Counted from the stretch's first letter, positions 5,200 through 36,034 are shown. The stretch is 52,686 bases of DNA from Vicinamibacteria bacterium (GCA_041484265.1 JBGPHH010000002.1:1-52686), one strand, 5' to 3'. Numbers and translations: made by a program. Notes: generated by a model not told the origin, from the sequence alone.

Positions 5200-5236
5200 C
5201 GCCCGTGCTAATGTGGGCCTCGGTCGAGCACGGGCG
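5200..5236 (+). promoter_or_regulatory. perfect 10-bp inverted repeat (CGCCCGTGCT ... AGCACGGGCG, 17-nt loop) 25 nt upstream of the TlpA-like start
   Basis: Arms at 5200-5209 and 5227-5236 are exact reverse complements. The element sits in the divergent intergenic region. Its function is unknown. Confidence 0.3.
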
Positions 5237-5260
5237 TGCCGCTGGGCCTCTAAGGAAGTG

Positions 5261-6208
5261 ATGATCACACGCGTAGTGTCGATACTCGTCCTCGCGACCG
5301 TGCTGGTTGGTGGTTGCAGCAAAGCGGCTCAGCCGCCGGCGTCCGACCCTGGCGTGATTGCGTCCGTGCGGTCCGCCATTGCCGCCCACGACCTTCCTCG
5401 GGGCGCGGCGATCCTGAGCGACTTCCGATCGGCTCATGGGACCACGACGGACGCCATCGAGGCGTTATCGTGGCTCGCGCGCGGGGCGCTCGCGGCCAAG
5501 GAGCTCGACGTGGCCGATCGCGACGCGTCGGAAACATATACGCTGGCCGTCGCCGCGCTCAAACGGGTCAAGCTCGAGGCGGACGCGCACTTGCAAACGG
5601 CGCTTGGCGCGGCCATCGAAACCGCCGCGCTCGTCGGGGTGGCGCGAGGGGAGCGGACAGAGGCCGTGTCCCTTCTGCGCAAGGAGCTCGAGACGTATCG
5701 CGATACGCCGATCCACAAGCGCCTGGCGAAGAACCTGAATCTGCTGAGTCTTGAAGGTCAGCCCGCGCCGCCGCTCGAAACCGCGGAGTACCTCAATCAC
5801 CCCGCGCCCACCTTCGCGCAACTCAAAGGAAGAGTGGTCTTACTGTTCTTCTGGGCCCACTGGTGCCCGGACTGCAAGATCGAAGGGCCCATTATCGCGA
5901 GGCTGCTCGAGAAGTACCGCTCGCAAGGGTTGGCGATTGTCGCACCCACGCAGCGATACGGATACGTGACGGAGGGCCGGCCGGCGCCGCCGCATGAGGA
6001 ACTGGCCCATATCATTCAAGTCCGCGACACCTATTACGCTTTCCTTCGCGACGAGCCCGTTCCCGTGAGCGAGGCGAACCATAAGGTATATGGCGTCGCC
6101 TCCACGCCGACCGTTGTGCTGCTCGATCGAGGCGGCCTCGTGCGTCTCTATCATCCGGGACGACTGACAGAAGAGGAGCTTGATGCAGCCATTCGGAGGC
6201 TGCTCTAG
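5261..6208 (+). CDS. TlpA-family thiol:disulfide oxidoreductase lipoprotein (helical N-domain plus thioredoxin fold)
   Basis: ATG 5261 is preceded by AAGGAAG. It has a signal peptide with a lipobox (LVGGCS) and the thioredoxin-fold motif FFWAHWCPDCK. Confidence 0.8.
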   Translation: MITRVVSILVLATVLVGGCSKAAQPPASDPGVIASVRSAIAAHDLPRGAAILSDFRSAHGTTTDAIEALSWLARGALAAKELDVADRDASETYTLAVAALKRVKLEADAHLQTALGAAIETAALVGVARGERTEAVSLLRKELETYRDTPIHKRLAKNLNLLSLEGQPAPPLETAEYLNHPAPTFAQLKGRVVLLFFWAHWCPDCKIEGPIIARLLEKYRSQGLAIVAPTQRYGYVTEGRPAPPHEELAHIIQVRDTYYAFLRDEPVPVSEANHKVYGVASTPTVVLLDRGGLVRLYHPGRLTEEELDAAIRRLL

Positions 6209-6215
6209 AGAGCGT

Positions 6216-7364
6216 TCATTTCCGAAGGGCAAAGAAGCCGGCCTTAGAGGCAGCGACGTAGATGCGGTCACCGAACACCAGGGGGGGCCACGGGAATTGA
6301 GTGTTGGCGTCCCCGACCCGCCAGCGTTCTTCGCCATTCGCGAGGCTCAGTGCCACCAGGCGGCCACCGACGTACGGCACGTAGACAGCGTCTCGGTCGC
6401 TCGCGATCGCAAACGCCGTTGAGCCGCTATTCGGAGTCGCGTGTCGCCAAAGTTCGCGCCTCGTTTCGATGTCGTACGCGACCACGGAGCCGCTGAGCGA
6501 TCCAGCAACCAGTGCAGCGCCGGCACGCGTCAGCGGACGAAAATCCTGCGCCAATGTGTCGGTCCCAGAGGAGCCGCCCAATTTCGGGATTGACCAGCGG
6601 ACGGATCCGTCGCTGCTGCTAAAGCCGTAGATCGTTCCGTCGCTGCTCGCTGCAACGACGACATCATCGATGAAGAGTGGACCACCGGCCCACCCGCTTC
6701 CGAGACCGGAATTCGAGGCACGCGAAAAGGTCGTGCGCCATCGCACGCGCCCCGTTGCGGCGTCGATACAGATCACGCCTCCGGCATTCGGCGCGCTGAA
6801 GGTCGTGTAGCCGGCTGCCACAATACCGCCCCGCACGACAGGCTGGAACACGGTGGTCTTTCCGTCCGTGGAGACGACCGTCGTCCACCGCTCTAGGCCG
6901 GTCACCTCGTCAACGGCATAGAGGCGTCCGGCGGGCGAACCGGCGAACACCCGCCCGTCAGCGGCGGCTCCCAAGTAGATGCCTGGACCGTAACCCTCGG
7001 TCGGCGCAAACCGCCACCGAATCACGCCGCGCGACCGATCAAAGGCGACGAGGTTGTAGTCTCCCGCGACGACGACAGGCCCGGCGATGACGAGGGCAGA
7101 GCCAAACGTCGTGTCGCCGGGCTCACCCGTCGACTGCCTCCACCGAAGCGCGCCATTGTCGGCATTGATGGCAAGCACTTCATGCTGGGCCGAGAGGAAG
7201 TACGCCGTCGAGGCTTCAGCGGCTGGGAGTCCCCGTCCGTCACCAGCAACGTGCCAGATATTCGGTGGCAGGCGCGCCACGTCGGCACCGCGACCGTTCA
7301 CCTGGGCCGCTGCGATCGCTCCTGAGACCACGCAGGCCATGACCACCGCAGCGAGTCTACACAT
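6216..7364 (-). CDS. secreted PQQ-like/BamB-like beta-propeller repeat protein
   Basis: Signal peptide MCRLAAVVMACVVSGAIAAAQ. Repeated G-x-L/V-x-A-x-D-x-x-T/G-G-x-x-R/L-W-R motifs (ALRWRQ, VIRWRF, LERWTT, RVRWRT, SVRWSI, ELWRH, EERWRV). I prefer ATG 7364 over GTG 7373. Confidence 0.75.
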   Translation of the reverse strand: MCRLAAVVMACVVSGAIAAAQVNGRGADVARLPPNIWHVAGDGRGLPAAEASTAYFLSAQHEVLAINADNGALRWRQSTGEPGDTTFGSALVIAGPVVVAGDYNLVAFDRSRGVIRWRFAPTEGYGPGIYLGAAADGRVFAGSPAGRLYAVDEVTGLERWTTVVSTDGKTTVFQPVVRGGIVAAGYTTFSAPNAGGVICIDAATGRVRWRTTFSRASNSGLGSGWAGGPLFIDDVVVAASSDGTIYGFSSSDGSVRWSIPKLGGSSGTDTLAQDFRPLTRAGAALVAGSLSGSVVAYDIETRRELWRHATPNSGSTAFAIASDRDAVYVPYVGGRLVALSLANGEERWRVGDANTQFPWPPLVFGDRIYVAASKAGFFALRK

Positions 7365-7470
7365 GTGAATCACTCACCATCTCGTAGGACGGACAACCAC
7401 ATTGTTGGCCGCTCTGTCAGCCGATCACTCACAGCTTGCACACTTCTCGAGCGTCCCGCCATTATTTTTC

Positions 7471-7499
7471 TTGAATGGCGTGGACCCGATCCCTACACT
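7471..7499 (+). promoter_or_regulatory. sigma70-like promoter (TTGAAT, 17-nt spacer, TACACT) for the hydrolase operon
   Basis: -35 at 7471-7476 and -10 at 7494-7499. An A/T-rich stretch (ATTATTTTTC) lies immediately upstream, and GGAG at 7511 precedes ATG 7525. Confidence 0.45.
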
Positions 7500-7524
7500 C
7501 TGCCGCAAATGGAGTGAAAAAAAC

Positions 7525-8436
7525 ATGCGCACACGACACCTTAGGTCCGCGGCTCTTGTGTTGGCTCTCGTTTCGGGCGCGCTCATCGTCGGAGGCATGA
7601 CGTATCTCAGTGCAGCCACTCAGGTGTCCAAGCGTGCGATCCCACCAGACGAAACCGGCGCGACGCCGGATGACTGGGACACGTTTAGCGCCGACATCAC
7701 GGTTCGACACAGCCGAGTACAAGCTGACGGCACGCCGTTCGACGCGGCCGCGTCGCCCACGCAGTATCACTGGGAACGATCGCGAACGGCCAACGGCTGG
7801 AAGACGACGGTGACGACGTCAACTGCGGCACGAGTCACGCTCAATGCGAGCGACGGCGCCGTGATTCAGGACAACCGGTTCTCGGTCGCGCGGATCGAGG
7901 ATGACGAGGATGGTTCGCCGGTCCGCCTCTACAACCAGCGCGGCGAGCAGGTTCCAGTCCCGCCGCCCGTCCGCAGCGCGGCCCCTCGGTCCGATGCGAA
8001 GGGGCTCCCCGAATTCCGGCGGCCTTCACTGCGGACCGGCGACGCTCCACAACGACCTGCCGTCGACGGCGGTCGGGCTTGGCTTGAAGGGATCATCGCA
8101 AGCTCATCGGCAAAGGCCACTCGACGACAAGGGCTCGAACGGCAACTCGGGAGTCCGACCAGTCGCGTCCGCGGCGCCGACCGTTTCGTCGTCACGCGCG
8201 GTGAGACGACGCAAGAGGTGCTGGCCGATCCGGAATCCGCCGTCCCAGTTGAGATGAATGTCGTCCGCAGCGGCCGACTGGTGACGCACAGCACATTCGG
8301 CTATGTGCCAGGCGCCGGCGGATCGCTCGTCAGGCACACCATTCATACCGAGCAGCTCGCCTCCAACAAGGGCGACCGTCTCGTGACCGACATTGAGTAC
8401 ACCAACATTCGGACAGAGCGAAGGGGGTCGCGATGA
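7525..8436 (+). CDS. hypothetical exported or membrane-anchored protein, first gene of the hydrolase operon
   Basis: ATG 7525 has a GGAG RBS. The N-terminus (MRTRHLRSAALVLALVSGALIVGG) is a hydrophobic anchor or signal. The stop overlaps the next start (ATGA at 8433-8436). No family was recognised. Confidence 0.6.
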   Translation: MRTRHLRSAALVLALVSGALIVGGMTYLSAATQVSKRAIPPDETGATPDDWDTFSADITVRHSRVQADGTPFDAAASPTQYHWERSRTANGWKTTVTTSTAARVTLNASDGAVIQDNRFSVARIEDDEDGSPVRLYNQRGEQVPVPPPVRSAAPRSDAKGLPEFRRPSLRTGDAPQRPAVDGGRAWLEGIIASSSAKATRRQGLERQLGSPTSRVRGADRFVVTRGETTQEVLADPESAVPVEMNVVRSGRLVTHSTFGYVPGAGGSLVRHTIHTEQLASNKGDRLVTDIEYTNIRTERRGSR

Positions 8437-10619
8437 GCCGCCACCTCCTACGCATCGTCAGTCTGGCCGGGCTCGCCGTGCTCCTCCACGGTGCTCCAGC
8501 GAGCGCCGACGACCGGCCCGTCGTGTTCGTCCATGGATTCCTGGGAAACGCAGGGACCTGGCAGGATGCCGCTGGCCGCCTGCAAGGGTTGCTCTTGATC
8601 GATCCTCACAGGCCGGAAACCTCTTGGACGAATCACTTCGACGCCCAGGCCGACCAGCTCCAGTCCCAGCTCTCGACGCTCCCGAGTACGACGATCGCGG
8701 TCGGCCACAGTTTCGGCGGACTTGTCGCGCGCCAATGGAACAGGACGCATCCGCTTGCAGGCATTGTCACCGTCGGTACGCCGCATCTCGGCGCGCCGCT
8801 CGCGTACTACGGCAACCTTGGCGCCTGGCTGAGCTTCAACTTTTCGGCAGCTGACCTGTTCAACGCGGTCTCCGACGCTCTCAGCGATTCAGAAGAGTGG
8901 CAATGGGTGTCTTCCTACGTGTTGCCCTATCTCGACTGGGCGTTCTACAGCTTCGCCGACCCCGTCTTCAGCGGCATCGCCGGGACACTCGGCTTCCAAG
9001 TCGGTCTTCCCGTTCTTGGCGATTCCTATCCGTATGCGCCTTACATGCTGGACCTGAATAGTGCGACGAACTTGAGTCGAGAAGCGGCGGCGATTCCCAG
9101 CCGCGTGGGCATTGTGAGCTGGGACCCCAACAACTATTATGCCGGTCCGGCCCACGCTCTCAGTCCCGACAACGCGAACACGATTGCGGGTCTCCTGTAT
9201 GGCGGCGCTGCTGCGCTCGAGTATTGGGCGGACTACGTCTTTTTCAGCGATCCTGGCAATCCAGACTCGGTCCATCTGGCAAACACGTTGTACGGAGTGG
9301 TGGACTGGATCTTGGATGTCGACCCGATCTGGTGCAAAGCGATCTCATCGACATCGTTCAACTCGTGTTGGGTCAGCGACGGGGTCATACCTCAATACAG
9401 TCAGGTGTACCAGGGCGGGAATTTCCAAATCAACTGGCCCGGCGGGCCCGCGCATCTGCAGGAAGCCAAGCAGAGTGACTACGCAATATACCTGGCCCTC
9501 ACCAACCTCATGAACGTACCTCCGCGGCCAGGCAGCGTGCCCCCTTCCGGCGTCGTCGTCTCCTGGTGCGATCCGACGCACCTCAGGTTCGGCGACTACA
9601 ACGGCGACGGCAAGCTCGACTTGAGCTGTCACAACGACGCGGGGCAGCACCTTGTGGCGTTCTCGAATGGCGACGGCACCTTCCTATCGTCGCCCTCGTG
9701 GACCGACGCCTGGTGCGATCCGACGCACCTCAGGTCCGGCGACTATAACGGCGACGGCAAGCTCGACTTGAGCTGCCACAACGACGCGGGGCAACACGTC
9801 ATTGCGTTCTCGAATGGCGACGGCACCTTCACCTCGACGAGCTGGACCGCCCCCTGGTGCGATCCGACCCACCTCAAGTTCGGCGACTACAACGGAGACG
9901 GCAAGCTCGACTTGAGCTGCCACGACGACTACGGACACCACATCATCAATTTCTCGAATGGCGACGGCACGTTCTCCTCGCCGGGTTGGTGGAACTTGAA
10001 CGCCCCGTGGTGCGATCCGACGCATCTCAAATTCGGCGACTACAACGGCGACCACAAGCTCGACTTGAGCTGCCACGACGACGACGGGCACCACATCATC
10101 GCGTTCTCGAATGGCGACGGCACGTTCACGTCGCCGGGCTGGTGGAACCTGAACGCCCCCTGGTGCGATCCGACGCACCTCAAGTTCGGCGACTACAACG
10201 GCGATGGCAAAACCGACCTGAGCTGCCATCACCCAGATGGCTACCACATCATCGCCTTCTCGAATGGCGACGGCACGTTCACCTCGCCGGGCTGGTGGAA
10301 CTGGGGCGCGCCGTGGTGCGATCCCTCACACTTGAAGTTCGGCGACTATAACGGCGACGGAAAGCTCGACCTGAGCTGCCACGACGACTCGGGGCATCAC
10401 ATCATCGCGTTCTCGAATGGCAACGGCACGTTCACCTCGCCGGGCTGGTGGAACTTGAACGCCCCGTGGTGCGATCCGACGCACCTCCAGTTCGGTGATT
10501 ACAACGGCGACGGCAAGCTCGATATGTCATGCCACCACCCGTACGGCATCCACGCCGTGGCCTTCTCCAACGGTGACGGCACGTTCAGCCCGAAGAACTG
10601 GTGGCCCTGGCCCTACTGA
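8433..10619 (+). CDS. secreted alpha/beta-hydrolase (lipase/esterase-like) fused to a 7-unit FG-GAP/VCBS-type repeat module
   Basis: Signal peptide ending ASADD. Lipase-like motifs PVVFVHGFLGN and the nucleophile elbow GHSFGG. The C-terminus has 7 tandem units of about 48-51 aa starting with WCDP. Confidence 0.8.
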   Translation: MSRHLLRIVSLAGLAVLLHGAPASADDRPVVFVHGFLGNAGTWQDAAGRLQGLLLIDPHRPETSWTNHFDAQADQLQSQLSTLPSTTIAVGHSFGGLVARQWNRTHPLAGIVTVGTPHLGAPLAYYGNLGAWLSFNFSAADLFNAVSDALSDSEEWQWVSSYVLPYLDWAFYSFADPVFSGIAGTLGFQVGLPVLGDSYPYAPYMLDLNSATNLSREAAAIPSRVGIVSWDPNNYYAGPAHALSPDNANTIAGLLYGGAAALEYWADYVFFSDPGNPDSVHLANTLYGVVDWILDVDPIWCKAISSTSFNSCWVSDGVIPQYSQVYQGGNFQINWPGGPAHLQEAKQSDYAIYLALTNLMNVPPRPGSVPPSGVVVSWCDPTHLRFGDYNGDGKLDLSCHNDAGQHLVAFSNGDGTFLSSPSWTDAWCDPTHLRSGDYNGDGKLDLSCHNDAGQHVIAFSNGDGTFTSTSWTAPWCDPTHLKFGDYNGDGKLDLSCHDDYGHHIINFSNGDGTFSSPGWWNLNAPWCDPTHLKFGDYNGDHKLDLSCHDDDGHHIIAFSNGDGTFTSPGWWNLNAPWCDPTHLKFGDYNGDGKTDLSCHHPDGYHIIAFSNGDGTFTSPGWWNWGAPWCDPSHLKFGDYNGDGKLDLSCHDDSGHHIIAFSNGNGTFTSPGWWNLNAPWCDPTHLQFGDYNGDGKLDMSCHHPYGIHAVAFSNGDGTFSPKNWWPWPY
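9564..10616 (+). repeat. in-frame tandem coding repeat, 7 units of 144-153 bp (FG-GAP/VCBS-like blades)
   Basis: WCDPxHLxFGDYNGDGKLDLSCHxDxGxHxxxFSNGDGTF recurs 7 times, with long near-identical nucleotide stretches between units. Confidence 0.9.
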
Positions 10620-10633
10620 GACTAGAGGAATTT

Positions 10634-12805
10634 ATGAGTGCATACCGCGTCGCCGACACGCCGAGAAAGTGGTTGGTGCTGGTCGCGCTTGGGCTTGGGG
10701 GCTTCAGCGCGCTTCCGGCCGCCAGCATGCTCCAGGAACGCGGACTCACCGTGGCGCAGCCTGGGCCTCAGGTGAAGTTTCGTCGGAGTCAACGACGTGT
10801 TCCCAATCAGTACCTCGTCCGACTGGATGACGATACGCTTCGCCGGTCCGCGGCTGCCAGACCCGGGAGCACCATGGCGCTCGAGGTGGATTTCAAGACG
10901 ACTGAACTGGTGCGACGCTACGGCGGCCGGCTGAGAAGCGTGTTCCGGTGGGCCGGCAGAGGCTTCTCCGTAGAGATGAACGAAGCGCAAGCGACGGCCC
11001 TCAGCGGCGCTCCTGATGTGGCGTTTGTCGAAGAGGACGGAGTCGTGTCCCCCACGTTCACGCAAAGCAATGCCCCGTGGGGACTTGATCGCATCGATCA
11101 GCGCAACCGGCCGACCGACGGCCTCTACAACTACGAGATGACGGGACAGGGCGTCCACGTCTATGTCATCGATTCAGGCATTCGCGCCACGCATCAGGAC
11201 TTTGGTGGCCGTGCCACATTGGATGCGGACTTCATTGGTGATGGTCAAGGGGGTAACGACTGCTTTGGCCACGGCACACACGTGGCGGGCATCATCGGCG
11301 GGACTACCTATGGTGTTGCCAAGAGTGTGCGACTTCACGCGGTCAGAGTCTTCAATTGCGTTGGGGCCGGTGGAACCTTTGAGACCGTCACCAACGCCGT
11401 CAACTGGGTCACGGCCAACCACCTCAGTCCGGCGGTCGCCAATATGAGCCTCGGTGGACCAGCCAATTCGATGCTTGACGACGCGATCCGGGACTCCATC
11501 TCGAGTGGCGTGACCTACGTCGTCGCTGCGGGGAACGACGGTGTTGATGCCAGCAATACTTCGCCAGCGCGCGTCGCCGAGGCTATCACTGTTGGTGCGG
11601 TGGACAGCGTTGACAACAAAGCTGGGTTTTCAAACTTTGGCGCGGTGGTGGATGTGTTTGCGCCGGGTGTCAGTATCCTTTCTGCGTACATTGGTAGTGA
11701 TACCTCAACCGCCACGCTTTCAGGCACGTCGATGGCGACACCGCACGTGGCTGGCGTTGCCGCACTCAACCTACAAGCGTTCCCGACCGCCAAGCCAAGC
11801 GACATCCAGCAGATCATTACCGTGACTGCAACGGCCGGGCTCGTCGGGAATTCAGGATCCGGGTCGCCCAACAGGCTGCTATATTTTCTGCATCCGACGC
11901 TCGTCGCCTGGTGCGATCCCGCGCACCTCACGTTCGGCGACTACAATGGCGACGGCAAGCTCGACTTGAGCTGCCACGACGACTCAGGGCGCCACATCAT
12001 CGCGTTCTCGAATGGCGACGGCACCTTTGCCTCGTCGGACTGGACCTCCTCCTGGTGCGATCCGTCGCACCTCAGGTTCGGCGACTACAACGGCGACGGG
12101 AGGCTCGACTTGAGCTGCCACAACGACTCGGGGCAGCACATCATCAATTTCTCGAATGGCAACGGCACCTTCACCTCGACGAGCTGGACCGCCCCGTGGT
12201 GCGATCCGGCGCACCTCAAGTTCGGCCACTACAACGGCGACGCCAAGCTCGACTTGAGTTGCCACAGCGACACCGGATACCACATCGTGAATTTCTCGAA
12301 CGGCGACGGCACGTTCTCGTCGCCGGGCTGGTGGGGCGCGCAGTGGTGCGACCCCTTACATCTGCAGTTCGGCGACTATAACGGCGACGGCAAGACCGAC
12401 TTAAGCTGCCATCACCCAGATGGCTACCACATCGTGGCCTTCTCGAACGGCGACGGTACGTTCTCCTCGCCCGGCTGGTGGAACTGGGGCTCGCCGTGGT
12501 GCGATCCGTCGCACCTCAGGTTCGGCGACTACAACGGCGACGGGAAGCTCGACTTGAGCTGCCACGACGACTCGGGGCATCACATCATCGCGTTCTCGAA
12601 TGGCGACGGGACGTTCACGTCGCCAGGCTGGTGGAACTTGAACGCCCCGTGGTGCGATCCGACGCACCTCAGGTCCGGCGACTTCAACGGCGACGGGAAG
12701 CTCGACTTGAGCTGCCACGACGACTACGGGCACCACATCATCGCGTTCTCGAACGGCGACGGCACGTTCGGCTCGACGGCGTGGTGGCCCTGGCCGCCCA
12801 ACTGA
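10634..12805 (+). CDS. secreted S8 (subtilisin/proteinase K-like) serine peptidase with a propeptide, fused to a 6-unit FG-GAP/VCBS-type repeat module
   Basis: ATG 10634 follows GAGGAA. It has a signal or anchor sequence and an I9-like propeptide (YLVRLDDD...FSVEMNEAQATAL). Catalytic triad motifs are VYVIDSGI (Asp), HGTHVAGIIGG (His) and SGTSMATPHVAG (Ser). Six WCDP units follow. Confidence 0.85.
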   Translation: MSAYRVADTPRKWLVLVALGLGGFSALPAASMLQERGLTVAQPGPQVKFRRSQRRVPNQYLVRLDDDTLRRSAAARPGSTMALEVDFKTTELVRRYGGRLRSVFRWAGRGFSVEMNEAQATALSGAPDVAFVEEDGVVSPTFTQSNAPWGLDRIDQRNRPTDGLYNYEMTGQGVHVYVIDSGIRATHQDFGGRATLDADFIGDGQGGNDCFGHGTHVAGIIGGTTYGVAKSVRLHAVRVFNCVGAGGTFETVTNAVNWVTANHLSPAVANMSLGGPANSMLDDAIRDSISSGVTYVVAAGNDGVDASNTSPARVAEAITVGAVDSVDNKAGFSNFGAVVDVFAPGVSILSAYIGSDTSTATLSGTSMATPHVAGVAALNLQAFPTAKPSDIQQIITVTATAGLVGNSGSGSPNRLLYFLHPTLVAWCDPAHLTFGDYNGDGKLDLSCHDDSGRHIIAFSNGDGTFASSDWTSSWCDPSHLRFGDYNGDGRLDLSCHNDSGQHIINFSNGNGTFTSTSWTAPWCDPAHLKFGHYNGDAKLDLSCHSDTGYHIVNFSNGDGTFSSPGWWGAQWCDPLHLQFGDYNGDGKTDLSCHHPDGYHIVAFSNGDGTFSSPGWWNWGSPWCDPSHLRFGDYNGDGKLDLSCHDDSGHHIIAFSNGDGTFTSPGWWNLNAPWCDPTHLRSGDFNGDGKLDLSCHDDYGHHIIAFSNGDGTFGSTAWWPWPPN
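11909..12802 (+). repeat. in-frame tandem coding repeat, 6 units of 144-153 bp, homologous to 9564-10616
   Basis: Same unit consensus as the upstream gene. A 49-nt run is perfectly identical between 10373-10421 and 12556-12604. Confidence 0.9.
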
Positions 12806-12828
12806 AGGTCGAGCTCCGGCGGGATCTC

Positions 12829-12958
12829 CGTGGCGTCACGCGTCGCGAGAGGCACCCTTGGCAAGTGTCTTTATCATCCGGGACGACTGACAGAGGAAGA
12901 GCTCGAGGCCGCCATTCGAACGTTGCTGGCCGGCTCTTTGGGTCGATCCGGTGTCTAA
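12829..12958 (+). pseudogene. orphan 3' fragment of a TlpA-family gene (paralog of 5261-6208)
   Basis: It translates to ...LYHPGRLTEEELEAAIRTLLAGSLGRSGV*, versus ...LYHPGRLTEEELDAAIRRLL* at the end of 5261-6208. A 23-nt block is identical (12872-12894 = 6149-6171), and the differences after it are mostly synonymous. No upstream thioredoxin-fold coding sequence is present. Confidence 0.6.
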
Positions 12959-13001
12959 ACGCTGAAGTCCGTCCCCGGGTCCGGCGGCGCACGGTTCACG
13001 C

Positions 13002-13029
13002 TTGACAGTCCCTCGGCGGTCCCCATAAT
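13002..13029 (+). promoter_or_regulatory. sigma70-like promoter (TTGACA, 16-nt spacer, CATAAT) for the adaptor/MacB operon
   Basis: -35 at 13002-13007 is a perfect consensus. -10 is at 13024-13029. The first possible start (GTG 13046) lies 17 nt downstream of the -10. Confidence 0.45.
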
Positions 13030-13045
13030 CAGGCAGGAACGCTCA

Positions 13046-14116
13046 GTGTCCGCGACAGACCGCTTATCCGCGGTAGCCGGCATGGCGCTATTGGCCGGCA
13101 CACTCGCCTGCGGAGGCTCGCCGCGCGGCGCCCAGCCCGCCCCGGCGAAATCGATGGATCGAGAGGCCGGAGCGGGAATCCTTCGGCTCACAGGCACGGT
13201 CGAGGCGGTTCAGGTCCGCACCGTCTCCGTGCCGAGGCTCCTTGGTCCGCAGACGCCACTCCTCATCATCGGCCTCGTGCCCGCGGGCAGCCGCGTCAAG
13301 CCGGGCGAGCTCGTGGTTGAGTTCGATCCGCAGCAGCAGGAGCGCAATGCCTTCGACCGTCGCGCCGAGGCCGTGAACCTCGACGGCCAGATCGACAAGA
13401 AGCGCGCCGGACAGACCGCAGACGAAGCCAAGGACAAGACCGAGCTCACGGCGGCCGAGAACGACGTGGAGCGCGCCGGCCTCGAAATGCGCAAGAACGG
13501 GCTTCTTCCCCGAAACGACGCCGAGAAAAATACGCTGGCGCTCCAGCAGGCCACGGCCCGCTTCGACCAGCTGAAGATCACGTACGATCTCAAGCGCAAG
13601 GCGGCGGCGGCCGAAATTCGCATCCTCGAAATTCAGCGCGAACGGGCCGATCGCGCGCTCCGCTACGCGCAGCAGAATGCCGCCCTCATGCAGACCAAGG
13701 CGCCCTTCAGCGGGCTGGTCGTCATCAAGCGCAACTACCGGAATGGTGCCTTCGTCGAGATCGCCGAAGGCGACGAAGTCCGTCCCAACACCCCGATCCT
13801 CGACCTCGTGGATACGTCCGTGATGCGCGTCCGCGTCCGGCTGAACCAGGCCGACGCGCGGCTGGTCCACGCGGGGCAGCGCGCCAAGATTGGTCTCGAT
13901 GGCTTTCCGGATCTGAAGTTCGACGGCCAGGTCACGACGGTGACGCCGCTCGCGTCGCCGAGTCAGCTCTCGCGAACGGTGCGATCGTTTGCGGCCATTG
14001 TGTCCATCGAAGGCTCCCATCCCCAGCTTCTGCCCGATCTGACGGCCTCGGTGGACATCGTCCCCGACCGCGTCCCGGTCGTACCCGTTCAGGCGGCGCT
14101 CGAGGGAGGACGCTGA
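13046..14116 (+). CDS. HlyD/MacA-family periplasmic adaptor, paralog 1 (possible lipoprotein)
   Basis: The N-terminal signal contains Cys (LLAGTLACGG). A beta-strand/lipoyl-like segment (PGELVVEFD) is followed by a long coiled-coil hairpin, then APFSGLVV and barrel segments. Alternative start: ATG 13082. Confidence 0.75.
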   Translation: MSATDRLSAVAGMALLAGTLACGGSPRGAQPAPAKSMDREAGAGILRLTGTVEAVQVRTVSVPRLLGPQTPLLIIGLVPAGSRVKPGELVVEFDPQQQERNAFDRRAEAVNLDGQIDKKRAGQTADEAKDKTELTAAENDVERAGLEMRKNGLLPRNDAEKNTLALQQATARFDQLKITYDLKRKAAAAEIRILEIQRERADRALRYAQQNAALMQTKAPFSGLVVIKRNYRNGAFVEIAEGDEVRPNTPILDLVDTSVMRVRVRLNQADARLVHAGQRAKIGLDGFPDLKFDGQVTTVTPLASPSQLSRTVRSFAAIVSIEGSHPQLLPDLTASVDIVPDRVPVVPVQAALEGGR

Positions 14117-14117
14117 C

Positions 14118-15344
14118 GTGCGCAGTTTCGTCGTCGCCGGCGTCCTCATCGCGGCGGGCGCAGGCGCGTACACGTTCTACAGAGGCAGCGTCGCTGGCAG
14201 TACCGACACCATTGCCGTCACGCGCGGCGAGTATTCGGACATCGTCGAGATCCGCGGTCAGATTCAGCCGGTGAAGTCCACCTACGTGACGGCCCCACTG
14301 AGCGCGGGCGAGCTACAGATTTTGACGATGGCCGCCAATGGCACCACGGTGAAGGCCGGCGACGTCGTGGCGGAGTTCGACGCGGTGGCGCTCAGACGCA
14401 CCATTCAGGAGAAGCAGGTGGAGCTCAGGAGCGTGACGGCTGAGCTTGGACAGGGCCAGGCCCAATCGGCCATCGCGACGGAAGCGCGGCAGGCGGCGGT
14501 GAAGAAGGCCGAGTTCGATGTGCTCAAGGCCAAGCTGGGGCTCGGCGACATTGCCTTCGTCGCGGCCATCGACGCCGAGAAAGCCAAGCTGGCGGTGGCG
14601 GATGCCGAACAGCGGCTCCGCGAAGCGCAGGCGTCAGTCGAGTCGGCCAAAGCCGACGCGCGGGCCGATCGCGAGATCCGCGAACGGAAGATCGCCAAGA
14701 CCCAAGGGGACCTCGAGCTGGCCCAACGGCAAGTCGCGGCCTTGCGCGTGACGGCGCCGACCGACGGCACGGTGAGCATCCAGCCCAACTACAGGTCGAC
14801 GACGCCGATGGGCACGCCGCAGGAGTACCGCGCCGGCGACCGCGCGTTTCCGGGCGCCAATATTCTCGAATTGCCGGACCTCTCGTCTGTGTACCTCACG
14901 GCGCGGATAGACGAAGCCGACCGCGGCAAGCTGACGACGGCCCAGACCGCGGTGATTCGGGTGGATGCGATCGCCGATCGCGACTACAAGGCCGACGTCA
15001 GCGACATCTCGGTGCTCGCGCGGACTGATTTCACGAGCGGCTGGCCGCCGCCCAAGCAGTTCGACTTGAAGTTGACGATCCAGGATCCGGACGCGCGCCT
15101 GCGGCCGGGGATGAGCGCAGCGGCGCGCATTACCGTCGGACGGATCCCGAACGTCTTGCTCGTGCCGTCAGGATCCGTTTTCTACGAAGAAGGTCGAACG
15201 GTGGTCTATCGGCTGGCGCGGCAGGGATTCGAGGCGGCGCCCATTGCGGTGGTCCGCCGGGGCCGCGATCAGGCTGCCGTCTCCGGCGGGATCAAAGAAG
15301 GCGATCGCATCGCTCGCACGCGCCCCGTTGAAACCCAGAAGTAG
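14118..15344 (+). CDS. HlyD/MacA-family periplasmic adaptor, paralog 2 (N-terminal TM anchor)
   Basis: GTG 14118 lies 1 nt after the previous stop and is preceded by GAGGGAGGA. Same architecture as paralog 1: AGDVVAEFD, long coiled coil, APTDGTVS. Confidence 0.75.
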   Translation: MRSFVVAGVLIAAGAGAYTFYRGSVAGSTDTIAVTRGEYSDIVEIRGQIQPVKSTYVTAPLSAGELQILTMAANGTTVKAGDVVAEFDAVALRRTIQEKQVELRSVTAELGQGQAQSAIATEARQAAVKKAEFDVLKAKLGLGDIAFVAAIDAEKAKLAVADAEQRLREAQASVESAKADARADREIRERKIAKTQGDLELAQRQVAALRVTAPTDGTVSIQPNYRSTTPMGTPQEYRAGDRAFPGANILELPDLSSVYLTARIDEADRGKLTTAQTAVIRVDAIADRDYKADVSDISVLARTDFTSGWPPPKQFDLKLTIQDPDARLRPGMSAAARITVGRIPNVLLVPSGSVFYEEGRTVVYRLARQGFEAAPIAVVRRGRDQAAVSGGIKEGDRIARTRPVETQK

Positions 15345-15345
15345 T

Positions 15346-15393
15346 GTCCGCCTTGAGGCGGACCGTGACTGAAGACTTCAGGCGGACCGTGAG
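15346..15393 (+). promoter_or_regulatory. structured intercistronic spacer: GTCCGCC-TTGA-GGCGGAC hairpin, TGAAGACTTCA palindrome, and a second GGCGGACCGTGA copy abutting the next start
   Basis: Stem arms at 15346-15352 and 15357-15363. The direct repeat AGGCGGACCGTGA occurs at 15356-15368 and 15380-15392. ATG is at 15394. Confidence 0.35.
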
Positions 15394-16716
15394 ATGAAGA
15401 CACGTCGCGTCATTGTGATCTCGGCAGTCGTCGTCATCGCCGCCCTCGCGGCGGCCGGCGTCGTCGTCGCGCGCTCGACCATCACGAAGGCCGCAGACAA
15501 CGCGTCGCCCACCGTGCCGACGACCCGCGTCGCGCGCGGATCGCTCGAGCTGACCGTCCACATGGACGGCGAGCTTCGGGCGTCGCATCAGCAGCAGATC
15601 CTGGCGCCCACGGTCGGCGGTGCGCTCCGCCTCCTGTCATTGGTCGACACCGGCGCCGAAGTCAAAAACGGCGACACCGTCGTCGAGTTCGATCCCGCTG
15701 ACCAGCAGTTTGCGCTCGAGCAGGCCGAGTCCGAGCTGCTCGAGGCTGAGCAGGAGATCATCAAGAGCAAGGCAGACACCAACGTCCAGGCGGCGGGGGA
15801 CAAGGTGAAGCTGCTCACGGCTCAGTTCGACGTCCGTCGCGCGGAGCTCGATGCTCTGGTCAAGGAAGACCTCGTGTCGGCCAACGACTTCAAGATCCGT
15901 CTGGCCTCCCTCGACGAGGCGCGGCGCACGCTGGCGCAGACCGAGCGGGATGTGGCGAGCCAGGCAGCGCTCAACAACGCCGGTTTGTCGGTGCTCGAAG
16001 AGAAGCGCGCGAAGGCGAAGCTCTCGGCCGATCGGGCGCGCCAGAATATTGAGAGCCTGGTCATCAAGGCGCCGATGGACGGTGTCGTCTCCGTGCGTGA
16101 GAATCAGGATGCCGCCGGCGGGTTCTTCTTTGGCGGGATGACGCTGCCGGTCTATCGCGTCGGCGACAGCGCCAATCCCGGCCGCGTCATCCAGGACATC
16201 TTCGACCTCTCCACATTGGAGATCCGCGCGACAGTGAACGAGCAGGACCGCGCGAATCTCTCGCCGGGCCAGACCGTTCAAGTGACGTCGAGCGCCATAC
16301 CCGGTCAGACGCTGTCGGCGACGATCAAGAGCATTTCCGGTCTCGGCCGATCCGATCGACAGGCCGGCCCGCTGCGCCTGTTCGACGTCACGCTGGTCCT
16401 TAATAAGGTGGACCGCGAGCTGCGGCCAGGGACCGCGGTGACGCTCGTCGCGCAGGGCCAGAAGATCGACAACGTGCTGGTGCTGCCCCGACAGGCGGTC
16501 TTCGAGGTTGACGGCAAGCCGGTCGTCTACGAACGGACGCAGACGGGATTCACGCCCCGCTCGGTCAAGGTCGTCCAACGCACCGAAAGCCGGGTGGCCA
16601 TCGACGGCGTGCCGCAAGGCACCGATGTCGCGCTCGTCAATCCCGACATCGCCGCTACGGGCGCGAGCGGGGCCAAGCCCACGGCGTCCGCGCCGGTCCC
16701 TGGGGCCGGACGATGA
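15394..16716 (+). CDS. HlyD/MacA-family periplasmic adaptor, paralog 3 (N-terminal TM anchor)
   Basis: TM anchor VIVISAVVVIAALAAAGVVV. Motifs NGDTVVEFD, long coiled coil, APMDGVVS. The stop overlaps the permease start (ATGA at 16713-16716). Confidence 0.8.
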   Translation: MKTRRVIVISAVVVIAALAAAGVVVARSTITKAADNASPTVPTTRVARGSLELTVHMDGELRASHQQQILAPTVGGALRLLSLVDTGAEVKNGDTVVEFDPADQQFALEQAESELLEAEQEIIKSKADTNVQAAGDKVKLLTAQFDVRRAELDALVKEDLVSANDFKIRLASLDEARRTLAQTERDVASQAALNNAGLSVLEEKRAKAKLSADRARQNIESLVIKAPMDGVVSVRENQDAAGGFFFGGMTLPVYRVGDSANPGRVIQDIFDLSTLEIRATVNEQDRANLSPGQTVQVTSSAIPGQTLSATIKSISGLGRSDRQAGPLRLFDVTLVLNKVDRELRPGTAVTLVAQGQKIDNVLVLPRQAVFEVDGKPVVYERTQTGFTPRSVKVVQRTESRVAIDGVPQGTDVALVNPDIAATGASGAKPTASAPVPGAGR

Positions 16717-18020
16717 GCGAGCCGTCACCATCCCCAACACCCGCTTTCGGAACGGCTCGAGTCCGTCGCCGGCTCGATTTCGTGCCCGAGCTCAAGCAGG
16801 GCTTCGACAACCTGCGTGCGCACAAACTGCGGTCGATCCTGACGATGTTCGGGATGATCTTCGGTGTGGCGGCGGTCATTGCGATGCTCTCGATTGGCGC
16901 GGGCGCGCAACAGCAGGTGGTGGCCTTCATCGAGCAGCTCGGCGTCCGGAACATCATCGTCGAAGCGAGAGAGTCGGCGGACAACCAGACGTGGCAGCGC
17001 GTGCGGGCGATGTCGGCCGGTCTCTCGTTTCGCGACCTGCGTGCGATTGAGGCGAGCCTGCCCGGTGTCAAGGCGATGTCGGCGAGAAAGCGATTCGTCC
17101 CGCGGAAGGTCCTGCCCAAGCCTCAAGGCGATACGCCGACCGTATTCGGCGTCGGGTCCGTGTACTTGAGGGACATCGGCGGGCTTCGTCTCTCACGTGG
17201 GCGTTTCTTTGGCGACGCCGAGGATCAAGCGGCCGCGGCGGTGGCCGTGCTGGGCCAGTCGGCGGCGACGGGCCTGTTCGGCGCCGACGATCCCGTCGGG
17301 CGGTTCGTGAAATTGAACGAAGAATGGTTCGAGGTCGTGGGCGTCGTCACGCCGAGGCTGGCCGTGCAGGGCGACGTCGGAGGTCTTCCGGCCCAGGACA
17401 GCAACAACATCATCTACGTGCCCATCCAGGCCGCCATCCTGCGCATCGAGGACGCGCAGTCCTACTTGAAAGACGAGATCGACGCGATCTATCTGAACCT
17501 TGCCGTCGAGGATCAGATTACGACGGCAGGCGTACTCGTGCGGGGGCTGCTCAAGACGACGCACCGCGAAGCCGACGACTTCACGGTGATTGTGCCGGCA
17601 GAGCTTCTGGCGCAGCAGCAGCAGACGCGGCGGCTCTTTCTCTATGTCATGGTAGCCATCGCGTCTATTTCACTGCTGGTTGGCGGCATTGGCATCATGA
17701 ACATCATGCTGGCGAGCGTGATGGAACGGACGCGCGAGATTGGCGTGCGCCGTGCGATTGGCGCCACCCGCAGGGACATCATCCGGCAGTTCCTGGTCGA
17801 GACGACGCTCATCACGGTGAGCGGCGGAGTGGCGGGAGTGGTCGTCGGGATCGCGCTGTCTCGGCTGGTGGCGTATCTGGCCGGTTGGTCCACCGTCGTC
17901 ACCGTCACGTCCGTCGTCGTGGCCTGCGCGGTGTCGGTGACGGTCGGCATTGTTTTCGGTTTGTACCCCGCCGCCCGCGCCGCCCGGCTCGATCCGGTGT
18001 ACGCGCTGCATTACGAATAG
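16713..18020 (+). CDS. MacB/FtsX-type ABC transporter permease (periplasmic domain plus FtsX 4-TM core), with no fused or adjacent ATPase
   Basis: LRAHKLRSILTMFGMIFGVAAVIAMLSIG at TM1, a large periplasmic insert, and the FtsX signature ERTREIGVRRAIGATRRDIIRQFLVE followed by TM helices. No Walker motifs are present in this ORF. Confidence 0.8.
   Translation: MSEPSPSPTPAFGTARVRRRLDFVPELKQGFDNLRAHKLRSILTMFGMIFGVAAVIAMLSIGAGAQQQVVAFIEQLGVRNIIVEARESADNQTWQRVRAMSAGLSFRDLRAIEASLPGVKAMSARKRFVPRKVLPKPQGDTPTVFGVGSVYLRDIGGLRLSRGRFFGDAEDQAAAAVAVLGQSAATGLFGADDPVGRFVKLNEEWFEVVGVVTPRLAVQGDVGGLPAQDSNNIIYVPIQAAILRIEDAQSYLKDEIDAIYLNLAVEDQITTAGVLVRGLLKTTHREADDFTVIVPAELLAQQQQTRRLFLYVMVAIASISLLVGGIGIMNIMLASVMERTREIGVRRAIGATRRDIIRQFLVETTLITVSGGVAGVVVGIALSRLVAYLAGWSTVVTVTSVVVACAVSVTVGIVFGLYPAARAARLDPVYALHYE

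Positions 18021-33892: not shown

Positions 33893-36030
<2,138 letters not shown>

Positions 36031-36034
<4 letters not shown>

Follow-up and report, generated by a model that had tools for sequence, protein, structure and literature searches.

Genes 2 and 3 of a three-gene cluster (7525-12805, + strand) are predicted to encode two secreted hydrolases, a lipase-like esterase and an S8 protease, each fused at its C-terminus to one portable type of beta-propeller. The window analyzed is a stretch of 52,686 nucleotides from a Vicinamibacteria bacterium (GCA_041484265.1 JBGPHH010000002.1:1-52686). The explanation that accounts best for the data, and which we hold with moderate confidence, is that a portable, disulfide-stapled binding propeller was copied as a block between these two genes. 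Few extracellular repeat domains of bacteria are as abundant as FG-GAP/VCBS propellers, yet for most of these propellers we know of no ligand. A sharply bounded subfamily with an invariant Cys pair gives a concrete handle on their function, all the more one that has lectin-like Trp/His positions and recurs on esterases, proteases, glycosidases and Rhs/Tc toxins. The fold is well known, the Cys-paired blade variant is new, and no established knowledge is overturned.

Organization of the locus

The three co-directional genes abut or overlap, as described in an earlier note on this DNA. Gene 1 (7525-8436, +) encodes an exported protein of 303 aa, gene 2 (8433-10619, +) the esterase with its propeller (728 aa) and gene 3 (P0207; 10634-12805, +) the protease with its propeller (723 aa as called). 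The stop of gene 1 overlaps the start of gene 2 by 4 bp, and an alternative GTG start at 10601 would extend the gene 3 product to 734 aa and create a 19-bp overlap with gene 2. These overlaps suggest that genes 1-3 are co-transcribed. The promoter-like site placed upstream by the earlier note is present at 7471-7499 (+; TTGAAT-N17-TACACT), but as a sigma-70-like site it is weak, with 8 of 12 matches as read from the sequence, and it fell below the threshold of the promoter scan and went unreported there.

Leaving aside the window's own protein, gene 1 has 63 relatives, of which none contains a Pfam domain, and Pfam and PDB profile searches with its product gave no match. In five loci a gene 1-like gene immediately precedes the esterase homolog, and gene 1 is a conserved upstream partner of the esterase. 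On the opposite strand (6216-7373, -) lies a gene for a secreted PQQ_2/BamB-like beta-propeller (Pfam PQQ_2, E = 1e-37), whose product is 43-53% identical to that of the gene following the esterase in loci L107, L108, L109, L113 and L114. This gene accompanies the gene 1 and esterase pair as a conserved neighbour, here in inverted orientation.

Catalytic domains of the two hydrolases

The N-terminal part of gene 2 (8433-9563, +) comprises a signal peptide (aa 1-25, MSRHLLRIVSLAGLAVLLHGAPASA), an alpha/beta-hydrolase domain and a Pro-rich linker. The signal peptide and the nucleophile elbow GHSFGG (aa 91-96, with Ser93), both recognized before, are confirmed. The motifs SDGVIP (Asp316) and GPAHLQ (His341) are conserved across approximately 17 homologs, and a Cys301-Cys312 pair lies just ahead of the catalytic Asp. 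Pfam returned a weak PGAP1-like match only (E = 9e-6), and Foldseek placed the domain with the family-I lipases of Proteus mirabilis, P. aeruginosa and Burkholderia (PDB 1ex9, 4gw3, 3w9u, 7cof). With a GxSxG elbow, conserved Asp and His residues and a lipase-like predicted fold, the domain has the hallmarks of an alpha/beta-hydrolase and is, by predicted activity, a family-I-lipase-like esterase. The GHSxGG elbow is shared with P. aeruginosa LipA (1ex9), the Proteus mirabilis lipase and the Burkholderia cholesterol esterase, although similarity to family I lipases is too low for the Pfam lipase models. The gene 2 family is small and uncharacterised, and its members always follow a gene 1-like gene. 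The C-terminal domains of the about 17 relatives of the catalytic domain are variable, being of B_lectin, beta-gamma-crystallin/I36-like or DUF7910 type or consisting of Cys-rich repeats.

In gene 3 the N-terminal part (10634-11908, or from the GTG start at 10601; +) contains a signal peptide, an I9 propeptide and an S8 domain. In GTG numbering, Inhibitor_I9 covers aa 71-149 (nt 10811-11047, +; Pfam E = 1e-4) and Peptidase_S8 aa 182-413 (nt 11144-11839, +; Pfam E = 5e-42), and the triad consists of Asp191 in VIDSG, His224 in HGTHV and Ser377 in GTSMA; these Pfam matches and motif positions bear out the propeptide and triad reported previously. The closest PDB sequences of the S8 domain are aqualysin-1 (4dzt, E = 3e-99), a keratinase (1.5e-98) and proteinase K (1.7e-83). 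The triad in S8 order, the I9 propeptide and the similarity to characterised members are those of the proteinase K subfamily, and by sequence comparison the catalytic domain is an aqualysin/proteinase-K-like S8 protease. A Cys pair (210/242) at DCFGHGTH / FNCVGAGG, which corresponds to one of aqualysin's disulfides, is likewise common to gene 3 and the aqualysin-1/proteinase K subfamily. Gene 3 differs from these enzymes in its C-terminal extension, a six-bladed Cys-paired propeller. An S8 protein encoded in locus L112 is 51% identical and has a different C-terminal extension, without Cys-paired blades.

Fold and distribution of the propeller modules

The module of gene 2 (aa 378-728; 9564-10616, +) consists of seven Cys-paired FG-GAP-type blades and that of gene 3 (aa 437-734 in GTG numbering; 11909-12802, +) of six; the unit numbers, the unit length of 48-51 aa and the consensus given in the earlier note were all correct. 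The match of the repeats to FG-GAP_3 is far beyond chance: PF13517 scores 144.8 bits in gene 2 (E = 1e-42) and 106.4 bits in gene 3 (E = 1e-30) against a cut-off of 26.9, and PF01839 (FG-GAP) 75 and 66 bits against 22.1. A D-Y-N-G-D-G-K-L-D loop is present in 11 of the 13 units (the exceptions are A4 with GDHK and B3 with HYNGDAK), and the Dx[DN]xDGxxD loop sits between predicted strands A and B. AlphaFold2 (AF2) models contain 28 strands (7x4) for the gene 2 module (mean pLDDT 84.7) and 24 (6x4) for that of gene 3 (mean pLDDT 86.7, pTM 0.82). Foldseek matched CRTAC1, ITFG2, TcB and integrin alpha propellers with probability 1.00, and also lectin propellers, the best match of the gene 3 module being the six-bladed TcdB2 propeller (TMq 0.57-0.61). 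The predicted strands and the Foldseek matches agree on four-stranded blades in six- and seven-bladed propellers. Thus the HMM searches and structure predictions that the note had proposed support a propeller fold for both modules, and Pfam, AF2 and Foldseek concur in predicting propellers of the FG-GAP/VCBS superfamily.

Of all solved sequences, the GlcNAc lectins PVL (2bwm), PAL (5mb4) and AAL2 (4tqj) from fungi resemble the blade profile most closely, with E values from 1e-12 to 1e-8. Like the modules described here they are FG-GAP/VCBS-type propellers with Ca loops, seven-bladed in their case, but they are stand-alone fungal proteins and have no Cys pair. When the whole module was searched as a single sequence, the sole PDB match (E = 3e-6) was a Streptomyces 'Secreted esterase' (8w20/8w22), which also joins a secreted esterase to a C-terminal FG-GAP-type propeller. 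A Trp in its D-A' loop aligns with the module Trp, but identity is low and its blades have neither the Cys pair nor the His residues. NCBIfam FusH (NF000157) gave a partial match on the module, whereas the FusH catalytic domain had no match to gene 2; 8w20/8w22 is linked to the FusH fusidic acid esterase family solely via matches on this same module. TcB (TcdB2) provides a precedent for a six-bladed member of the superfamily, like the gene 3 module, although its propeller is not attached to a hydrolase, and Photorhabdus TcdB2 was not detected by sequence with the Cys-paired query.

Cys-paired blades occur in 13 other proteins or 50%-identity clusters, compared to 46,058 FG-GAP-like proteins. 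On this sequence evidence the Cys pair, with its spacing of 20, defines a rare blade subfamily with the pattern W-C-D-P-x-H-L...C...G-x-H...NGDGTF...WW. Its other hosts are melibiase-family glycosidases, in which the blades are inserted, TcB/Rhs toxins, Kelch proteins and stand-alone lipoproteins, the module being N-terminal, internal or a stand-alone lipoprotein by itself. In the protein collection the lipase and S8 fusions are singletons. We found no earlier description of a Cys-pair blade in the literature searched; the survey of the WCDP...SCH variant thus revealed a rare module in diverse hosts, not a common family that is already characterised.

Copying of the module between adjacent genes

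All 13 units (A1-A7 in gene 2, B1-B6 in gene 3) share 66-95% protein identity. DNA similarity of 83-85% between the two genes is confined to 9546-10612 and 11893-12795 and ends at the module borders. The nearest full-length outside relative of the modules is only 47% identical, and short fragments reach 64-68%. Both modules have the same diagnostic order of units, namely two short 'SWT' units of 48/49 aa, a CHHPDGYH unit, a CHDDSGHH unit and a WWPWP end unit. The position-by-position correspondence claimed earlier is therefore real but less clean than described, since two registers, A2-A7 and A1-A6 against B1-B6, give nearly equal DNA identity (84.6% and 83.2%, respectively). Units A5 and B4 are 90% identical and A6 and B5 95%, in each case closer than to their own neighbouring units. 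For the module copies overall dS is 0.41, dN 0.10 and dN/dS about 0.25; for A5/B4 dS is 0.76 and dN 0.06.

DNA identity restricted to the modules, together with the low dN/dS, indicates that the block moved and that both copies were kept, in agreement with the transfer proposed in the note. Judged by the nucleotide comparison, the copying of a multi-blade block between genes 2 and 3 is demonstrated. One blade would have been gained or lost in this event between adjacent genes, and purifying selection would have retained both copies since. The locus is a clean natural case of multi-blade copying followed by retention, and bears on the amplification and shuffling of propellers (PMC9218822).

The Cys pair and the histidines

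Every Cys is paired in both proteins, as 301/312 plus seven pairs at i,i+20 in gene 2 and as 210/242 plus six pairs at i,i+20 in gene 3. Both Cys are present in 97/97 aligned blades from 18 variant protein entries of several phyla (apart from the window's own proteins, which are counted twice, these comprise 14 distinct proteins), in keeping with conservation of these positions among homologs. The last blade of P0226 retains the second Cys only. As had been noted, the pair is not canonical, for Cys occupies blade position 22 in only 2.5% of 2,419 generic blades. In 71 non-window blades both Cys are found in 100%, His6 in 66% and His29 in 85%, and position 23 is Asn (39%) or His (36%). Of the two Cys and two to three His per blade described previously, the Cys are thus general, but the His count is largely specific to the window. 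The pair survives loss of the Ca motif or of His6 (P0001-P0003), and all full-length carriers observed have signal or lipoprotein leaders. Predicted topology places Cys399 in strand B opposite Leu384, and Cys379 five residues ahead of strand A. PDB sequence and profile comparison found no solved structure with the Cys pair.

The note had left a choice between a per-blade disulfide and a metal site. Because the Cys are invariant while the His are less conserved, the disulfide is favoured over a Cys2His2 site, and one disulfide per blade is most likely on the conservation pattern. The Cys that follows the inter-blade Trp would bond to the one close to where strand B ends. Both lie across from the Ca-binding DxNGDGxxD loops, on the opposite face, and the bond would hold the B-C turn and the D-A' connecting segment together. 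The competing proposal is a Zn or Cu site in each blade, formed by Cys2, His6, Cys22 and His29, to which the window's blades add His23 and His28; this would make the propeller a poly-metal-binding or redox-active domain that is not disulfide-stapled. No variant-specific positions are more conserved than Cys2, His6, Cys22 and His29, and the blade topology would put all four at one common end of strands A, B and C; the window modules are unusually His-rich (7.4-7.7% His, 3-4 per blade), and zinc was found in native AAL2 preparations (PMC4483166). We nevertheless regard such a site as unlikely: 34% of the variant blades outside the window have S, D, R or N in place of His6, although all of them keep both Cys, position 23 is Asn as frequently as His, and the proteins are exported, have their other Cys paired as well and contain no unpaired Cys. 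It is even less probable that the conserved Cys/His cluster on one face of every blade is, beyond any stapling, a functional site repeated six to seven times, whether as a metal centre or as a ligand pocket switched by thiol/disulfide redox chemistry, which would make the propeller a new poly-metallo or redox-gated binding domain controlling the place or timing of lipase and protease action.

Possible ligands of the propeller

The modules are best read as a portable extracellular binding domain. The shared targeting or binding role suggested earlier fits both the domain swaps among the esterase relatives and the diversity of hosts. The propeller is most likely a rigid, multivalent binding or targeting domain that would direct both enzymes to one surface or polymer, possibly a glycan, although a glycan as the ligand is the least certain step. 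If the module does bind a glycan or surface polymer, it would represent a new family akin to carbohydrate-binding modules and would offer protein engineering a scaffold that is compact and stable.

The sugar pocket of AAL2 contains Trp112 and His117, in Trp-x4-His spacing (PMC4483166). Blade positions W1 and H6 match this spacing, with W1-x4-H6-L7 in 13/13 units, and in profile alignment H6 falls on the His of HLRF in PAL, PVL and AAL2, so that the pocket Trp and His of PVL and AAL2 (Trp-x4-His-Leu-Arg in the connecting segment) have counterparts. The second pocket wall of these lectins is the 2-3 loop, which comes after Cys22. In PVL and tachylectin-2 the pocket is formed by the GW of loop DA' (PMC8023676). 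By spacing comparison, the essential Asn/Asp eight residues before the pocket Trp and the Gly-Gly immediately ahead of that Trp have no recognisable equivalent: the window segment before W1 reads ...SPGWWNLNAP (-8 is Gly, -2/-1 are Ala-Pro), and other variants read ...WWPSxPGxGxG (-8/-7 are Ser/Glu, -1 is Gly). The connecting segment is also five residues shorter than in PVL and AAL2. With the key Asn/Asp unrecognisable and this segment shortened, we do not claim a GlcNAc-type site.

A ligand could also be a protein. The six-bladed TcB propeller serves in docking and gating on TcA (PMC6795518), and the modules here might likewise act in docking or anchoring and tether both hydrolases to, for example, the neighbouring PQQ-like propeller, the product of gene 1 or some protein of the outer membrane or cell surface. 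The same blade type docks proteins in TcB-like toxins (PMC6795518), the TcB/Rhs-like P0210 and P0267 themselves bear Cys-paired blades, the TcB propeller is the best structural match of the six-blade module, and gene 1 and the PQQ_2 propeller are conserved esterase neighbours. However, esterase relatives keep gene 1 and the PQQ-like gene and yet bear lectin-like C-termini; these neighbours are retained without the propeller and are thus independent of the module. Insertion into melibiase-family glycosidases also suits carbohydrate binding better, and we consider docking a possible but rather doubtful alternative to a binding domain for surfaces or polymers. That the propeller is a pro-domain for secretion or folding, cleaved after export and without a role in the mature enzymes, is brought to mind by the protease domain, which is closest to aqualysin-1; the aqualysin precursor requires a C-terminal pro-sequence for export. 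This appears highly improbable, as the module is N-terminal, internal or a stand-alone lipoprotein in other proteins, is also attached to the esterase, whose relatives have lectin-like domains at that place, and is under purifying selection in both copies.

Flanking thioredoxin-fold genes

Flanking TlpA-type genes, in the plural, had been thought to fit a disulfide requirement of the modules. Only one is intact (5213-6208, +), encoding a TlpA/ResA-like thioredoxin-fold lipoprotein with a WCPDC motif (Pfam Redoxin, AhpC-TSA and Thioredoxin_8) and partial NCBIfam matches to ResA and TlpA. TlpA/ResA-type proteins are mainly reductants. With a single intact gene, and no TlpA-type gene adjoining any of the five related cassettes, the proposed fit is not upheld, and any functional link between this gene and the block is tenuous. 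The downstream counterpart is a remnant, a copy of the last 20 codons of this TlpA-like gene (12867-12927, +), which forms a direct repeat with 6144-6204 (LYHPGRLTEEELEAAIRTLL vs LYHPGRLTEEELDAAIRRLL; 51/61 nt identical). These direct repeats, 6144-6204 and 12867-12927, flank the block at 6205-12866.

A probably disulfide-stapled propeller blade in two secreted hydrolases

The repeat unit shared by genes 2 and 3 is a rare and sharply defined form of the FG-GAP/VCBS blade, probably stapled by a disulfide, and used as a portable extracellular module; this reading is testable and tidy, and overturns nothing known. When cut at WCDP, gene 2 yields seven units (A1-A7, aa 378-728) and gene 3 six (B1-B6, aa 437-734), each of 48-51 aa and all conforming to the consensus proposed in the earlier note. 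The modules match Pfam FG-GAP_3 (E = 1e-42 for gene 2 and 1e-30 for gene 3), and AlphaFold2 predicts four strands per unit, 28 in gene 2 and 24 in gene 3, with a mean pLDDT of 84.7 for the whole gene 2 protein and a pLDDT of 86.7 and pTM of 0.82 for the six-unit module modelled alone. Foldseek matches for gene 2 include CRTAC1, ITFG2, TcB, LGI1, BamB and bacterial lectin propellers, and the top match of the six-unit module is the TcdB2 propeller (TMq 0.57-0.61). Thus the suggestion that both modules are beta-propellers holds as a prediction, and TcdB2, which is six-bladed (PMC6795518), offers a precedent within the same superfamily for the difference between seven and six blades. Weak matches to Dockerin_1, lanthipeptide SCO0268 and XAC2610 were dropped and are read as low-scoring by-products of the Asp/Gly-rich repeat loops. 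His (7.4-7.7%), Trp (6%) and Asp (12.8%) are unusually frequent in the modules (9564-10616 and 11909-12802).

The attached catalytic domains are of the types previously assigned. Gene 2, a lipase-like esterase, has a typical signal peptide and a GHSFGG motif (aa 91-96) followed by SDGVIP (Asp316) and GPAHLQ (His341). Pfam gives it only a weak PGAP1-like alpha/beta-hydrolase match, and its modelled N-terminal domain resembles the family-I lipases of Proteus mirabilis, Pseudomonas aeruginosa (1ex9) and Burkholderia. In about 17 homologs the motifs with Ser, Asp and His are kept, as is a Cys pair just ahead of the catalytic Asp; one distant esterase relative is labelled Gemmatimonadaceae. Gene 3 has an S8 domain with the triad Asp191, His224 and Ser377 (numbered from the GTG start), preceded by an I9 propeptide, both of them Pfam matches. 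Its nearest matches are aqualysin-1 (E = 3e-99), a keratinase and proteinase K, and these were preferred over partial matches to mycosin and QhpE.

The cysteine pair and the conserved histidines

A search with the profile of blade A2 against 1.84 billion representative proteins returned 46,058 FG-GAP-like proteins at E <= 1e-3. Within the best 150 of these, the W-C...C blade was found only in the two proteins of the window and 12 others; with P0002 and P0003, obtained in the first search, at least 14 other proteins carry it. They form at least 13 clusters, P0002 falling together with P0001, a lower bound because the profile search was read over the best 150 of the 46,058. Altogether 2,521 blades were realigned, the variant set comprising 18 protein entries (14 distinct proteins from outside the window, with the window's own counted twice). 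Both Cys are present in all 97 variant blades in which both positions are aligned, as compared with a frequency of 2.5% for Cys at position 22 among 2,419 generic blades, where His occurs at position 6 in 1.1% and at position 29 in 2.0%. By eye, the last blade of P0226 retains only the second Cys. The proposal that the pair lies outside the canonical repeat and is conserved is therefore borne out. Solved structures were searched with a TcB-like variant as well as with the module and the blade profile, and none with the Cys pair was found; no relevant description of a Cys-bearing FG-GAP blade or of this architecture was found in the literature.

The 71 variant blades from outside the window have Trp1 in 94% and both Cys in 100%, but His6 in 66%, His29 in 85% and the Ca-loop residues in 57-92%, position 23 being Asn in 39% and His in 36%. 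The pair is also retained in blades that have lost His6 or the Ca motif. On these frequencies no feature of the subfamily is conserved as strongly as the Cys pair, which surpasses the Ca loop. In the predicted topology of gene 2, strand A is HLxFG, followed by the Ca loop, strand B is D-L-S-C-H and strand C starts from the conserved His, which would place both Cys together with His6, His23 and His29 on the side away from the Ca loops. Such a grouping could in principle form a Cys2His2 metal site in each blade. This is the less likely reading because conservation of the His ligands falls short of that of the Cys, and the earlier count of two to three His per blade is weakened likewise, the extra His at positions 23, 24 and 28 being specific to the blades of the window. 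One predicted disulfide per blade is the most economical reading: all Cys of genes 2 and 3 fall into pairs, i with i+20 in each blade, with one further pair in each catalytic domain. The disulfide would join the segment connecting adjacent blades to the end of strand B.

Copying of the module between genes 2 and 3

Protein identity among all 13 units is 66-95%, and high blade-to-blade identity is a known trait of recently amplified propellers (PMC9218822). Between the two genes, DNA similarity reaches 83-85% over about 910 nt and is limited to 9546-10612 and 11893-12795, so that it begins a few codons ahead of the first WC and ends just short of the stop codon. The modules align in two registers with nearly equal scores, and both genes have the same order of units, with two short "SWT" units followed by CHHPDGYH, CHDDSGHH and a WWPWP end unit. 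A5 and B4 are 90% identical in protein with a dS of 0.76, and A6 and B5 95% identical with a dS of 0.43, as against a dS of 1.5 between the neighbours B4 and B5 inside gene 3; the collinear units overall have a dS of 0.41 and a dN of 0.10. Outside the window, the module's nearest full-length relative has 47% identity and short fragments reach 64-68%. The bounded DNA similarity, the preserved order of distinctive units, the dS/dN pattern and the distance of outside relatives show that a multi-blade block was copied from one gene to the other with one blade gained or lost, as the earlier note had supposed. Judging from the substitution rates, the copying is not a very recent event and both copies are under purifying selection.

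Carriers of the module and possible ligands

Elsewhere, four to seven Cys-paired blades occur in melibiase-family (GH27/36-like) glycosidases, within the enzyme or ahead of its N-terminal domain (P0217 in a Polyangiales MAG, locus L034; P0209 in a Nitrospirota MAG, locus L015; P0270; P0226). Other carriers are SpvB-TcdB-RHS toxins (P0210, P0267 and L075, a locus in a Burkholderiales MAG), Kelch proteins (P0216, P0013) and stand-alone lipoproteins with seven blades (P0001-P0003). In P0217 and P0209 the blades, 4 or 7 in number, are inserted behind the N-terminal domain and ahead of the catalytic barrel. A propeller cannot be closed by four blades alone, and it is possible that they fold by oligomerisation. 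In searches by codon pattern, two consecutive WCDP gave 106 loci in genome contigs, mostly chance or other repeats, with L015, L034 and L075 as the only genuine cases. None of 18 loci with a triple WCDP in metagenome contigs encoded a genuine Cys-paired blade protein, this strict pattern being too narrow for a census.

The fusions of the module to a lipase and to an S8 protease are singletons in the protein collection (gene 2 being P0206), and no relatives were found in genome contigs with full-length gene 2 as query. Relatives of the esterase domain end, after a Pro-rich linker, in bulb-lectin, beta-gamma-crystallin/I36-like, DUF7910 or Cys-rich repeat modules, and an S8 protease at locus L112, 51% identical to the catalytic domain of gene 3, has a quite different C-terminal extension. 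Since esterase and S8 relatives bear other modules at this place, the propeller takes the position of an interchangeable binding domain, and these domain swaps lend support to the idea of a binding module shared by two hydrolases. At L112 the seven-bladed lipoprotein P0003 (8001-9356) is encoded about 2 kb from the S8 protease (11409-13724).

The solved sequences closest to the blade profile are the fungal GlcNAc lectins PAL, PVL and AAL2, in which the His of HLRF aligns with His6 of the window's blades. The sugar pocket of AAL2 is formed by the connecting segment (Asn104, Gly110, Gly111, Trp112, His117) together with the following motif's 2-3 loop (PMC4483166), and its Trp-x4-His spacing is that of Trp1 and His6. 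In the window's blades Cys2 directly follows the Trp and Cys22 precedes by two residues the counterpart of the wall formed by the 2-3 loop, so that a disulfide between them would clamp both walls of a PVL-type pocket. Two points speak against a true PVL-type site: the connecting segment of PVL-type lectins is longer, and the window's blades show no recognisable counterpart of their essential Asn/Asp, located 8 residues ahead of the Trp. In TcB proteins the propeller docks on a protein (PMC6795518), so that binding of a glycan by the module, by analogy with these lectins, is no more than a reasonable guess.

Gene order and genomic surroundings

Gene 1 (7525-8436; 303 aa) overlaps gene 2 (8433-10619; 728 aa) by 4 bp, and gene 3 (10634-12805; P0207 in the protein collection, where it is called with 723 aa) has an alternative GTG start at 10601 that gives a 19-bp overlap with gene 2. 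Of the earlier description of one promoter and three abutting or overlapping genes, the overlaps and the common direction stand, but the putative promoter at 7471-7499 (TTGAAT-N17-TACACT) has 8 of 12 matches and was not listed by the consensus scan. As the site scores below the scan threshold, it is the gene overlaps that argue for an operon.

Gene 1 has no Pfam, NCBIfam or PDB-profile match. Its family counts 63 other exported proteins of about 300 aa, none with a Pfam domain, and a role as a Lif-like foldase is only a thought. At five related loci a gene-1-like gene lies directly upstream of an esterase homolog, followed by a PQQ_2/BamB-like propeller gene; gene-1-like genes are located at 8001-8885 in L107, 8001-8876 in L108, 5092-5997 in L113 and 5061-5927 in L114. 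These three genes constitute a conserved cassette, to which gene 3 is an addition found only in this window, where the PQQ_2/BamB-like gene (6216-7373) is inverted and located upstream of genes 1-3. A 61-nt direct repeat (6144-6204 and 12867-12927; 51/61 identical), corresponding to the last 20 codons of a TlpA-like gene, brackets the PQQ-like gene and genes 1-3 (6205-12866), which suggests that this block was inserted or rearranged beside the TlpA-like gene long ago.

The supposed downstream TlpA gene is therefore only a remnant, and related loci have the cassette without a TlpA-type gene, so that a connection of flanking TlpA genes with a disulfide requirement is not supported. The sole thiol-disulfide oxidoreductase seen inside the cassette, a single suggestive case, is a DsbA-like gene of L114 (in the stretch 5924-8559), where this DsbA/Thioredoxin_4 gene directly follows the esterase homolog P0125, whose C-terminus is a triple Cys-rich repeat. 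The window also encodes, about 21 kb away from genes 2 and 3, a 713-aa thioredoxin-fold protein with an N-terminal Thioredox_DsbH (DUF255) domain (33893-36034).

No Rfam match was obtained within the window, and the rest of it has ordinary chromosomal gene content. Directly downstream of the block is a strong sigma-70-like site (13002-13029; 11/12 matches), followed by three consecutive HlyD-family membrane-fusion genes and a MacB/FtsX permease gene (13046-18020).
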